Assembly: GCF_988243305.1 (NCBI RefSeq)
Contig: NZ_OZ547137.1
Direction: 5' to 3' (one strand)
DNA: 64,000 nt
Source of the DNA: a plasmid
This document shows, piece by piece, positions 3,918 through 7,429 of the stretch (its first letter is position 1; each line of letters starts with the position of its first letter). A model generated the notes under the pieces. It was not told the DNA's origin. It was given only the letters and a program-made list of their open reading frames with translations, and made no database searches. The translations under genes and the position numbers were made by a program.

Positions 3918-4603
<686 letters not shown>

Positions 4604-4702
4604 GCCAATATTCACACAATTAACTAATATTTTCTACGCAATACGTGACACCTTTCGAGGAGAGGTGCTCGAAATTTCAGACATAAAAAGCCCCGTAGGG
4701 CC

Positions 4703-5104
4703 TTAGATGATTTCTTCCAATGCTGATTCCAGTTCTTTTACTTGCATTGCTCTAAGACGAGGAGCTAATGTTCGATGGGCGTTTAAGTAATCAATGGCTC
4801 TTGTTACCAGCTTTCCTCCGCCACAGACAACGAAATAACTCTGATGTTGTGTGTGTTGTGCATCAAGAACTGTGTGGCCTAGCTTCTCTATTGCGGTACC
4901 ACTCACTTCCTGCCATTTAGCCGTTATTTGAACGGTACCGGTATTAGTGAACAACAGGAAGTGGGCTATTTCATTCTTTCCCGCGATCAGACCAGGATAA
5001 CTGACATTTTTTTTAAACGTCATCGGAGCTTCTGAGTTACTTAGCTCAAAGCCTGCCCCAGAAATAATTGCTTCAATATCACGCAGTAATTCTGCTCTGG
5101 ACAT
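4703..5104 (-). CDS. hypothetical protein (133 aa), cargo of the Tn3-like cassette
   Basis: Uninterrupted ORF between tnpR and the intron; no family recognised. Confidence 0.45.
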   Translation of the reverse strand: MSRAELLRDIEAIISGAGFELSNSEAPMTFKKNVSYPGLIAGKNEIAHFLLFTNTGTVQITAKWQEVSGTAIEKLGHTVLDAQHTQHQSYFVVCGGGKLVTRAIDYLNAHRTLAPRLRAMQVKELESALEEII

Positions 5105-5214: not shown

Positions 5215-7082
5215 AGATCGGGATAGGGGCTGATCTCACGATTAGCCTCCTCCCACACCACCGTACATACGGGTCCGTATACGGCAGTTCGGTTATGTTT
5301 ATCGTCGCCTGCCTATAACTCCGGTAGGCCCAGTCTGACGAACAGGCGATTGGGAAGTGCTATGCTCAGTGCCGGACTACAGCTTATCCGCCATTGCTTA
5401 TGGCAACTCCCTACCGTTTGCGCTGCAAGGTCTTTGCTTACTCCCCGTCTGCGCAACTCTTTGAAGCGCTTGCTGCCCGTTTTCCACTGTTTCCACAGGA
5501 CACTTCGCAACCTTCGCCTTATCCACCTGTTCAGATCTCTCATCAGCGTTTGCCACTGGTTCAGTCCATAGTAGCTTTTCCATCCCGTCAGATATCGCTT
5601 TAACGGTTCGATAAGCTGCTCTAGGCTTTTGCCCGTGTTACGCCCCGTCAGTTCTCTTATCCGGGTTTTGAACCGCTTCACCGATTCCGGCAACACCACA
5701 CACCACACCTTTCTGCCCCTCCTGAAGCTGTAACCCAGGAACTTACGCGTCTCCGGAAGCGCTACCGCGCTCTTCTTCGCGTTGAGCTTCAGCTTCAGTT
5801 TCCGGTTCAGCCAGTGCGTCAGCCCCGCCATCATACGGTTGCCTGCCCGTTCACTCTTCACATACACATTACAGTCGTCTGCGTAGCGGGCGAACTTCAG
5901 GCCGCGTTTCTCAAGTTCCTTATCGAAGTCATCCAGCAGCAGATTCGATAACAGTGGCGACAGTGGGCCGCCCTGCGGCGTCCCTTCTGTCACCGGCATT
6001 ACCAGACCCGCTTCCATCACACCTGCATTCAGGTACCCGCGGATAAGTGACAGCACCCGTTTATCCGATACTCGTTTCGCTATCCGGCTCATCAGTACAT
6101 CGTGATTCACCCGATCGAAGAACTTTTCCAGATCGAGGTCAACCCCCCAGCTGTAGCCCGACTCGATGTATTTCTGAGCCTGCTTCACTGCCTGATGCGC
6201 CGAGCGTCCGGGCCGGAACCCGTAGCTGCTGTCGCTGAACGTCGCATCCCACTGTGCCTGCAACACCTGCATCATCGCCTGCTGGATAAAGCGATCCACC
6301 ACCGTCGGGATGCCCAACAGACGTTCGCCGCCGCCGGGCTTCGGGATAGTCACTCTTCTTACAGGGGATGGGCGGTAGCTGCCGGACAGCAGTTGCGCTT
6401 TCAGTTCCGGCCAGTGGTGTCTCAGATAGTCCGGCAGTTCGCTTACGCTCATGCCGTCGGCTCCCGCCGCACCTTTATTGGCCTTCACTCTTTTCAGGGC
6501 ATGCCTGAGGTTGACTGGTTCGCAGATGGCTTCCATCAGCCACGCTGTTGACGATGGACTTTCTCTGGTCGTCGGTGCCTGCACGGTTTCAGCCCCCTGA
6601 GAACCGGCGTCAGGGGCTTCACCCCGTCTTCCTGCATCAGGGTCGCGATACGTTTTCTGCTGCATGACCGTTCAGAACCTCCGCTGATACTCGTCACTCA
6701 TTACCGTTCGGGCCTTCAGACGCGCCTGTCCTACTATGCCCTCTGCTGACTCCTGTCCGCCGGTCAGCGCACCTTACGGTACGCTCAGTTCTGAATACAG
6801 AACGCCAGACAGGCCTCCCGGGGTAAGCTCAGCCGCTTTCACCACACACCTGCCCAATCTACCACCCCGGCTCTTGATGGTTATGGCCTTTGCAATCAAT
6901 GGCTTGCTCCGCCAGCCGGGTAGGCCTCATATCGGATTTCTGTTCGTCAGGTCATGGTTTTGCTCCACGCTTCCTTCAGATCCCGCCTCACGACGGCACC
7001 CTTGCGCTTCACGAGTCCTTCGCCACCATCAGGCTGGACAGGGGACTTTCACCCCCGAGCTGCTGAGCATGCCCGGCACACC
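5215..7082 (-). mobile_element. group II intron (bacterial class C-like; boundaries approximate)
   Basis: 5-prime end GTGTGCCGGGCATG... on the minus strand sits right after a terminator hairpin; domain V-like stem-loop (rc of 5255..5292) and domain VI downstream of the IEP ORF. Confidence 0.75.
5313..6665 (-). CDS. group II intron-encoded reverse transcriptase/maturase (no endonuclease domain evident)
   Basis: 450 aa with RT motifs (GIPTVVDRFIQQA, FARYADDCNVYV with YADD) and a C-terminal maturase X domain. Confidence 0.9.
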   Translation of the reverse strand: MQQKTYRDPDAGRRGEAPDAGSQGAETVQAPTTRESPSSTAWLMEAICEPVNLRHALKRVKANKGAAGADGMSVSELPDYLRHHWPELKAQLLSGSYRPSPVRRVTIPKPGGGERLLGIPTVVDRFIQQAMMQVLQAQWDATFSDSSYGFRPGRSAHQAVKQAQKYIESGYSWGVDLDLEKFFDRVNHDVLMSRIAKRVSDKRVLSLIRGYLNAGVMEAGLVMPVTEGTPQGGPLSPLLSNLLLDDFDKELEKRGLKFARYADDCNVYVKSERAGNRMMAGLTHWLNRKLKLKLNAKKSAVALPETRKFLGYSFRRGRKVWCVVLPESVKRFKTRIRELTGRNTGKSLEQLIEPLKRYLTGWKSYYGLNQWQTLMRDLNRWIRRRLRSVLWKQWKTGSKRFKELRRRGVSKDLAAQTVGSCHKQWRISCSPALSIALPNRLFVRLGLPEL

Positions 7083-7083
7083 A

Positions 7084-7107
7084 TAAAAAAGCCCCCACGG
7101 GCTTTAT
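7084..7107 (-). terminator. rho-independent terminator-like hairpin forming the intron 5-prime exon
   Basis: Minus strand aaagccc-gtgg-gggcttt stem-loop followed by a T-run, immediately upstream of the intron 5-prime end. Confidence 0.5.
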
Positions 7108-7140
7108 TACTAAATTCAATACAAACAACAAATTATGCTC

Positions 7141-7178
7141 TTAACGTACGTTTTCGTTCCATTGGCCCTCAGCCCCCT
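7141..7178 (-). repeat. Tn3-family terminal inverted repeat (second copy, inverted relative to 3880..3917)
   Basis: Reverse complement reads agggggctgagggccaatggaacgaaaacgtacgttaa, matching the IR at 3880. Confidence 0.7.
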
Positions 7179-7429
7179 GGTATTGCTTGCGCCAGAGAAA
7201 TAACTGGCTGGCTGCCACACCGTGTTGCCGGGCAACAAGGGAGGCCGTCATTCCCGGTTCAAAGCTCTGCTGAACAATAGCGCTCTTTTCCTGTGTAGTA
7301 CGCCGTCTGCGTTTCTCCGGTCCTAAGACATCAATCATCTGTTCTCCAATGACTAGTCTAAAAACTAGTATTAAGACTATCACTTATTTAAGTGATATTG
7401 GTTGTCTGGAGATTCTGGGGGCTAGTCTA
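7177..7429 (-). mobile_element. insC: IS2 5-prime fragment (IRL and truncated insC)
   Basis: rc of 7381..7429 matches the IS2 left end (tagactagcccccagaatctccagacaaccaatatcacttaaataagtg); ORF 7141..7383 encodes [18 protein letters not shown]...LFLWRKQYQ, then runs into the Tn3-like IR. Confidence 0.85.

Follow-up and report, generated by a model that had tools for sequence, protein, structure and literature searches.

A group II intron, very probably of class C, behind a terminator-like hairpin at the end of a Tn3-family transposon carried by an E. coli IncF plasmid

The window analysed here, a stretch of 64,000 nucleotides, belongs to an E. coli virulence-type IncF plasmid and carries a complete group II intron of 1865 nt on the minus strand. 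The intron's insertion point is a few nucleotides past a hairpin, which in turn lies 34 nt within a Tn3-family transposon end. The features that define the insertion are as follows.

5217..7081, minus strand: complete group II intron, 5' GTGTGCC..., 3' ...CCCGAT (empty site and homology)
7088..7105, minus strand: terminator-like hairpin in the 5' exon, AAAGCCC-GTGG-GGGCTTT (terminator scan; retained in the empty site)
7082..7084, minus strand: IBS1 (AUG), final 3 nt of the 5' exon (pairs with EBS1 CAU and covaries in relatives)
5216, minus strand: IBS3, nt 1 of the 3' exon (C) (window and empty-site junctions)
7140..7177, minus strand: 38-bp Tn3-family terminal inverted repeat, GGGGGCTGAGGGCCAATGGAACGAAAACGTACGTTAAG (sequence of the window and of pSE11-3)

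Both ends of the intron (7081..5217) were set against the empty site in pSE11-3, a plasmid of E. coli SE11 (locus L001), in which the intron-less flanks are joined as aaagctcgtgggggcttttttatg/ctctcaccataagagtgg (a slash marks a junction here and below) and exon 2 starts with ctctcacc. On the minus strand of the window the 5' junction reads ...aataAAGCCCgtggGGGCTTttttatg/GTGTGCCGGGC... (7105-7077) and the 3' junction ...CCCCTATCCCGAT/ctctcacc... (5229-5209); the flanks around the intron, ...cttttttatg/GTGTGCC...CCCGAT/ctctcacc, agree with the empty site. Since pSE11-3 carries the same flanks without the insert, the inserted element is exactly 7081..5217, and the ligated-exon junction is predicted to read ...CTTTTTTATG-CTCTCACC... 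(ttttttatg-ctctcacc). Homology to a Providencia copy extends over intron nt 1-1865, and homology to a Klebsiella copy begins at nt 1. The original prediction, made from the letters of the window, had placed the intron at 5215-7110; an intron is indeed present there, but this range takes in 2 nt of the 3' exon and the upstream hairpin. It had also put the 5' end a few bases past a stem-loop and T-run on the minus strand, and the terminator scan recovers this hairpin at 7105-7088, with a 7-bp stem, a 4-nt loop, the tail TTTATG and a T-run at 7090-7085. The intron starts with GTGTG at 7081, 6 nt past the hairpin, which occupies the place where IIA and IIB introns have IBS2. The scan of the region returned 4 sites versus 2.8 expected and is by itself without significance.

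The intron contains a single long reading frame.

6665..5313, minus strand: ORF of 450 aa in domain IV, between domains III and V, RT and maturase (X)

The domain content read from the letters, RT and maturase with an intact YADD and no endonuclease domain, was recovered in full. Pfam assigns RVT_1 (3e-41) and GIIM (2e-18) to the 450-aa protein, with no match to an HNH or other endonuclease domain and none after GIIM, and YADD is intact within ...KFARYADDCNVYV. Among solved structures the best match is the GsI-IIC RT (6ar1; 471 bits, residues 43-448 of 450 against 3-408), itself without an endonuclease domain, followed by the E. rectale IIC protein (7uim, 350 bits) and two IIC RT-domain crystal structures, 5hhj and 5hhl (280 and 277 bits); the four top distinct PDB sequences (471 to 277 bits) are thus all from class C. 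LtrA, a IIA protein, reaches 131 bits, and the 562-aa intron maturase/RT chain 6me0, which we take to be the T. elongatus IIB protein, 121 bits. The original prediction had made the lineage of the protein a point on which terminator targeting should stand or fall, and the protein groups with class C (GsI-IIC RT 471 versus LtrA 131 bits). In identical plasmids RefSeq lists it as WP_021562748.1, ltrA, 'group II intron reverse transcriptase/maturase'.

Group II introns are recognised by a six-domain ribozyme that starts with GUGYG at its 5' end, contains a conserved domain V, and carries a bulged A in domain VI near the 3' end. The RNA outside the ORF amounts to 512 nt in the window copy, and the following parts of it were located.

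6666..7081, minus strand: domains I-III together with the 5' portion of domain IV, 416 nt (Rfam matches, alignment fold)
6970..6980, minus strand: 11-nt bulge UCUGAAGGAAG with AGGAA, the class C epsilon-prime region (aligns with the group-II-D1D4-3 consensus)
5257..5288, minus strand: domain V, with a 10-bp basal stem, 2-nt bulge, 3-bp distal stem and 4-nt loop
5221..5254, minus strand: domain VI; its branch-point A (5224) is bulged and precedes the 3' splice site by 7 nt

The Rfam model group-II-D1D4-3 matches 6997-6827 with 137.3 bits (E 3e-28) and group-II-D1D4-1 matches 6787-6711 with 53.7 bits. The domain V/VI model, run with relaxed thresholds, matches 5289-5217 with 38.7 bits (E 1.5e-5), which is 1.3 bits short of its gathering score (40); the deficit comes from a 4-nt gap in distal domain V, a shortening typical of the class. 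Folding of single sequences gave z-scores of -1.2 for domains I-III and -1.8 for domains V-VI, values at which fold energy alone is uninformative, and the structural argument is carried by the covariance models and by covariation in the alignment. In the alignment fold, built on eight relatives that are 75-96% identical, 113 pairs were predicted in domains I-III, 32 of them with compensatory changes, and 27 pairs in domains V-VI, 10 of them compensatory, including changes in the distal helix of domain VI. The canonical domain V/VI fold, which the original prediction had put at stake beforehand, was therefore found, together with the bulged A. The AGGAA bulge is unchanged in the 8 relatives. 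The domain V triad (5286-5284) is UGC in the window and in all E. coli plasmid copies examined, and CGC in seven relatives, E.c.I6 among them; the C-to-U change keeps the pair, C-G becoming U-G. On these sequences the UGC triad is a single point deviation in the lineage of the window copy, with the architecture unchanged.

Recognition of the exons and choice of the target were followed through relatives of the intron. These were collected as megablast copies, namely Klebsiella (90%) and Providencia (79%) plasmids and one E. coli chromosome (87%), and by an exact search for the 5'-end pattern, which added 3 IMG/VR loci and 22 loci from species-representative genomes; pooled, they gave 28 distinct 5' junctions from Enterobacterales, IMG/VR contigs and one MAG. 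The sites within domain I that would read the exons are the following.

6899..6901, minus strand: EBS1 triplet (CAU); it lies in a domain I hairpin, within the 8-nt terminal loop on the stem 6907-6904 / 6895-6892
6910, minus strand: candidate EBS3 (G) in CUGGC[G]GAGC, which would pair with the IBS3 C at 5216

EBS1 is the variable triplet of the loop GC-NNN-UGA, and it pairs with the last 3 bases of the exon wherever both can be read. Three genome matches (L010, L023 and L026) are 5' fragments only and were left out of this comparison. The EBS1-IBS1 pairing is 3 bp long, and four states of EBS1 covary with the IBS1 of their own sites:

EBS1 CAU with IBS1 AUG: window, L007, L031
EBS1 AUG with IBS1 CAU or UAU: L003, L009, L008
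EBS1 AAG with IBS1 CUU or UUU: L002 and the copies of the MAG Ch49, JABLXL01
EBS1 AAA with IBS1 UUU: L005 and Serratia nevei

The base at 6910 and the start of the 3' exon form G/C in the window, L007 and L009, A/U in L003 and L030, and a G/U wobble in L002 and L005; from these few states we infer that base 6910 is probably the EBS3 that pairs with IBS3. On the 5' side, 27 of the 28 distinct junctions have a hairpin that is strong and GC-rich, mostly accompanied by a T-run, and ends a few nucleotides before GTGTG. Over the 36 nt upstream, fold energy averages -18.9 kcal/mol at the 28 sites and -7.2 at 976 control positions from the same loci (Mann-Whitney p = 2.3e-17), and the observed median is reached by 0.6% of the controls. 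The preference for insertion downstream of terminator-type hairpins, which one locus had suggested at the outset, thus extends through the lineage (27/28 sites, p = 2e-17). The hairpin likewise holds the IBS2 position at 27/28 sites, and no extra domain I stem-loop was seen in the consensus fold.

Class C (IIC) introns are distinguished by RNA features that include an abbreviated size and an 11-nt bulge with AGGAA that is unique to the class, and their domain V has a distal stem 2 bp shorter than that of IIA and IIB introns and CGC in place of AGC (Toor et al. 2006, PMC1702495). Their exons are recognised by a 3-4 bp EBS1-IBS1 pairing, by EBS3 as in IIB and by a terminator stem-loop that replaces IBS2, and insertion takes place 3-11 nt past an intrinsic terminator's stem-loop, as in B.h.I1 and others (PMC1702495). 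The RNA hallmarks given there (PMC1702495) are present in the window intron, EBS3 as a candidate, and the intron deviates from them in having UGC rather than CGC. Taken with the protein matches and the target sites, they make the element very probably a full-length bacterial class C group II intron; the cautious 'class C-like' of the original prediction was borne out, and plain 'class C' fits. That the hairpin stands beside the intron by chance, the element belonging to another class without endonuclease (D, E or F), is hardly credible. A preference cannot be read from one site, and the scan shows no enrichment in the region (4 versus 2.8 expected), but 28 independent sites with p = 2e-17 and the covariation of the 3-bp EBS1/IBS1 pairing speak against coincidence; moreover, the form of domain V and the AGGAA bulge are specific to class C, and the top solved-structure matches are all class C proteins. 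Marginally less improbable is membership of the IIC-attC sub-lineage, which would target integron attC sites instead of terminators. Introns of this kind are also class C, occur on enterobacterial plasmids and recognise a stem-loop (PMC3001079), but the targets in the window and in its 27 relatives are short GC-rich hairpins with a T-run in varied gene contexts, and no integron or cassette annotation appears in the annotated flanks of the sites examined.

Similarly to the B.h.I1 class (Bacillus halodurans), the window intron combines a small ribozyme with an RT/maturase devoid of an endonuclease domain, and it shares the post-terminator site, the 3-bp EBS1-IBS1 and the probable EBS3-IBS3 pairings, the short domain V stem and AGGAA. 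It differs from that class in the UGC triad and in its host, an IncF plasmid of E. coli on which it occupies the end of a Tn3-family transposon. The protein matches the GsI-IIC RT (6ar1) and the E. rectale protein (7uim, 5hhl) over their full length, with the same RT-X-D architecture; unlike the GsI-IIC RT, it would have an N-terminal extension of about 40 aa if the first ATG (6665) is used. Within the same species, E.c.I6 (E. coli CFT073/ED1a/S88; PMC3522654) belongs to the same class, directly follows a terminator hairpin (...gccagcagtgtctgcctgctggctttttgttat/GTGCGCC) and has the same domain V/VI architecture, but it lies on the chromosome, within a pathogenicity island, and has a disrupted ORF (Leclercq & Cordaux 2012, PMC3522654). 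Identity of the window intron with E.c.I6 was rejected, the similarity to the CFT073 copy being patchy and about 70% at the nucleotide level, and it is probably not E.c.I11 of pEC958 (PMC4398462) either, a plasmid that is absent from the 13 records with at least 80% of the query. The plasmid 55989p, which carries a fragment of the intron, is absent from the Enterobacteriales intron catalogue, and so no published name was found for the family. The relatives in Klebsiella (90%), an IMG/VR contig (96%), Serratia nevei (88%) and Providencia rettgeri (79%) are collinear with the window copy in ribozyme and protein, and each has its own terminator hairpin and matching EBS1 triplet, whereas insertion sites and EBS1 triplets differ. 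The odd 3' end of the Klebsiella copy was considered as an alternative domain VI and rejected; it results from an IS110-family insertion in domain VI, with the true 3' end 2.5 kb downstream.

A scheme for the life of the intron can be proposed on these grounds. Transcripts that read through the hairpin would fold into domains I-VI, with the 5' exon recognised by the 3-bp EBS1-IBS1 pairing (CAU/AUG) together with the adjacent stem-loop and the 3' exon by the single EBS3-IBS3 pair, and splicing would be aided by the intron's own RT/maturase, as is expected of the class. The excised RNA-protein particle, again by analogy with the class, would reverse-splice into DNA where a matching triplet follows a terminator-type hairpin, a few nucleotides past the hairpin. 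With no endonuclease domain in the protein, priming of cDNA would have to start from DNA ends of the host, such as the nascent strands of a replication fork; priming from host ends is known for B.h.I1 and other endonuclease-less introns. The window copy probably owes its position to a single entry into the hairpin just inside the Tn3-family transposon end, followed by passive travel on IncF plasmids.

The history of this copy can be read in part from its host. The 38-bp repeat falls within the first ~70 nt of the empty-site query, and matches to this part coincide with 'Tn3 family transposase' annotations; the repeat is one that we take to resemble that of gamma-delta/Tn1000. It interrupts an IS2-like orfA, and a resolvase gene (3956-4603) and a PD-(D/E)XK gene lie on the opposite side of the intron. 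A single site is common to all the E. coli plasmid copies, which thus descend from one insertion; six are full-length and 99.5-100% identical, the one in pHH35 with a frameshift in the ORF. Others are truncated at the 5' end, in 55989p and in further plasmids in which the match is confined to the 3' two-thirds of the query, and the truncation adjoins an IS66-family element in 55989p and NCCP 13983; one copy (NZ_OP242283) is truncated at the 3' end. In the plasmid records the target is uninterrupted in 54 and at least 80% of the intron is present in 13, an occupied/empty polymorphism of the kind that a mobile insertion predicts, and among 5426 complete E. coli genomes the intron is present over at least 80% of its length in 23. 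A look-alike target on the same strand 2.4 kb away (4704-4681, AAGGCCCTACGGGGCTTTTTATG/T, a hairpin with UUAUG) is unoccupied. The distribution over plasmids and this empty look-alike indicate, as far as the compared sequences go, one insertion and then passive spread. Elsewhere, the 96%-identical copy on an IMG/VR contig (L007) sits at a different terminator, from which it follows that the intron family has moved recently.

It is possible, although we hold this only tentatively, that an intron of class C by descent has here become an immobile relic, inserted once, slowly decaying and spread by its plasmid and transposon. The common site of the E. coli plasmid copies, which gives no hint of recent movement within E. 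coli, is consistent with this, as are the broken sister copies (5'-truncated in 55989p, frameshifted in pHH35, 3'-truncated in NZ_OP242283), a domain V triad that is UGC versus CGC in 7 relatives, and the empty, near-identical target at 4704-4682. These observations have to be set against an intact ORF of 450 aa with YADD, a triad change that preserves the pair (C-G to U-G), and the recent movement attested by L007; in addition, a position behind a terminator is expected to restrict active class C introns, too, to a low copy number (PMC3522654). A considerably less probable reading takes the same intact RT/maturase ORF, the one site and the empty look-alike 2.4 kb away to mean that the E. coli plasmid lineage is a natural variant with a UGC triad, one that splices without moving or is retained for a function to its host or transposon. 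Such a function might lie in the supply of RT activity or in the modulation of read-through at the transposon end, and the lineage would then offer a small natural experiment on the tolerance of the triad or mark the onset of domestication.

That class C introns exist and prefer terminator hairpins has been on record since the early 2000s. Element type, mechanism and target preference are textbook matter, and the window intron is an ordinary one, with nothing new in kind. Its relevance beyond correct annotation is small, the identical plasmid copies in RefSeq being already labelled. What is gained are the exact boundaries and exon-binding sites of an intron family for which no published name was found, and a data set of 28 sites that documents the EBS1/IBS1 covariation and the hairpin rule. 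Moreover, the state of the insertion (present, absent or truncated) could mark the ancestry of plasmids with the same transposon end, for example 55989p. Outside the Enterobacterales, a MAG labelled Actinomycetota (Ch49) holds at least 15 copies of the intron family, with a 29-nt 5' end identical to that of the enterobacterial copies; this burst could reflect a recent transfer between phyla, unless the MAG is mislabelled or contaminated.

The hairpin occupied by the class C group II intron (7081..5217, minus strand) is carried by a Tn3-family transposon, presumably gamma-delta-like, whose 38-bp terminal repeat (7177-7140, minus strand) breaks an IS2-like reading frame after ...WRKQYQ; this frame lies within window 7140-7383:

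7383..7141, minus strand, IS2-like orfA, 80-aa ORF

An unoccupied look-alike target is found at 4681-4704 (minus strand), where the hairpin AAGGCCC-TACG-GGGCTTT, followed by TTATG|T, stands directly 3' of the stop codon of a 133-aa PD-(D/E)XK ORF. Its IBS1 (AUG) is identical to that of the occupied site and lies about as far from the stem as it does there.

The 5' end of the intron's family was also detected on at least 15 contigs of the metagenome-assembled genome (MAG) JABLXL01, labelled 'Actinomycetota bacterium Ch49' (loci L011-L022, L024 and L025), 11 of these 5' ends lying at a contig end. Each copy is located 3' of its own, different GC-rich hairpin, and the sequences indicate a multi-copy burst of the family in this MAG. 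The MAG copies are identical to the window copy over nt 1-14 and 19-29 of the intron, despite an overall ribozyme identity of about 75%; the proteins are about 55% identical. With regard to the catalytic triad of domain V, the class C consensus is CGC, which is present in seven relatives of the intron, including E.c.I6, a separate class C intron of the E. coli chromosome, whereas the window copy has UGC (5284-5286, minus strand), as do all E. coli plasmid copies checked.

In about 200 complete E. coli genomes only nt 1-65 of the intron are left, 97% identical to the window copy (for example NC_007946.1 4843898-4843962, in the UTI89 chromosome) and adjoining an IS66-family transposase; this piece is a widespread chromosomal remnant of the intron. 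At locus L002 (4847-7309), on the Klebsiella quasipneumoniae plasmid NZ_CP092403.1, domain VI of a related intron is interrupted by an IS110-family element, and about 19 nt of this domain (GGGAGGAGGCTGATCGTGA) are present on either side of the insertion.

An Rfam search also returned a group II intron domain V/VI match (Intron_gpII, 47.2 bits) at window 16232-16303 (minus strand), unrelated to the class C intron. No intron-encoded protein ORF lies beside it, and in thousands of plasmids the sequence that adjoins its 3' end is labelled as IS3-family transposase. The match has the appearance of an intron remnant, truncated at the 5' end, within an IS3-family element. Two other Rfam matches were obtained in the window:

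24893-25017, plus strand, STnc490 Hfq-binding sRNA, 140.5 bits
25916-26014, plus strand, ALIL pseudoknot (frameshift element of the IS3 family), 81.1 bits
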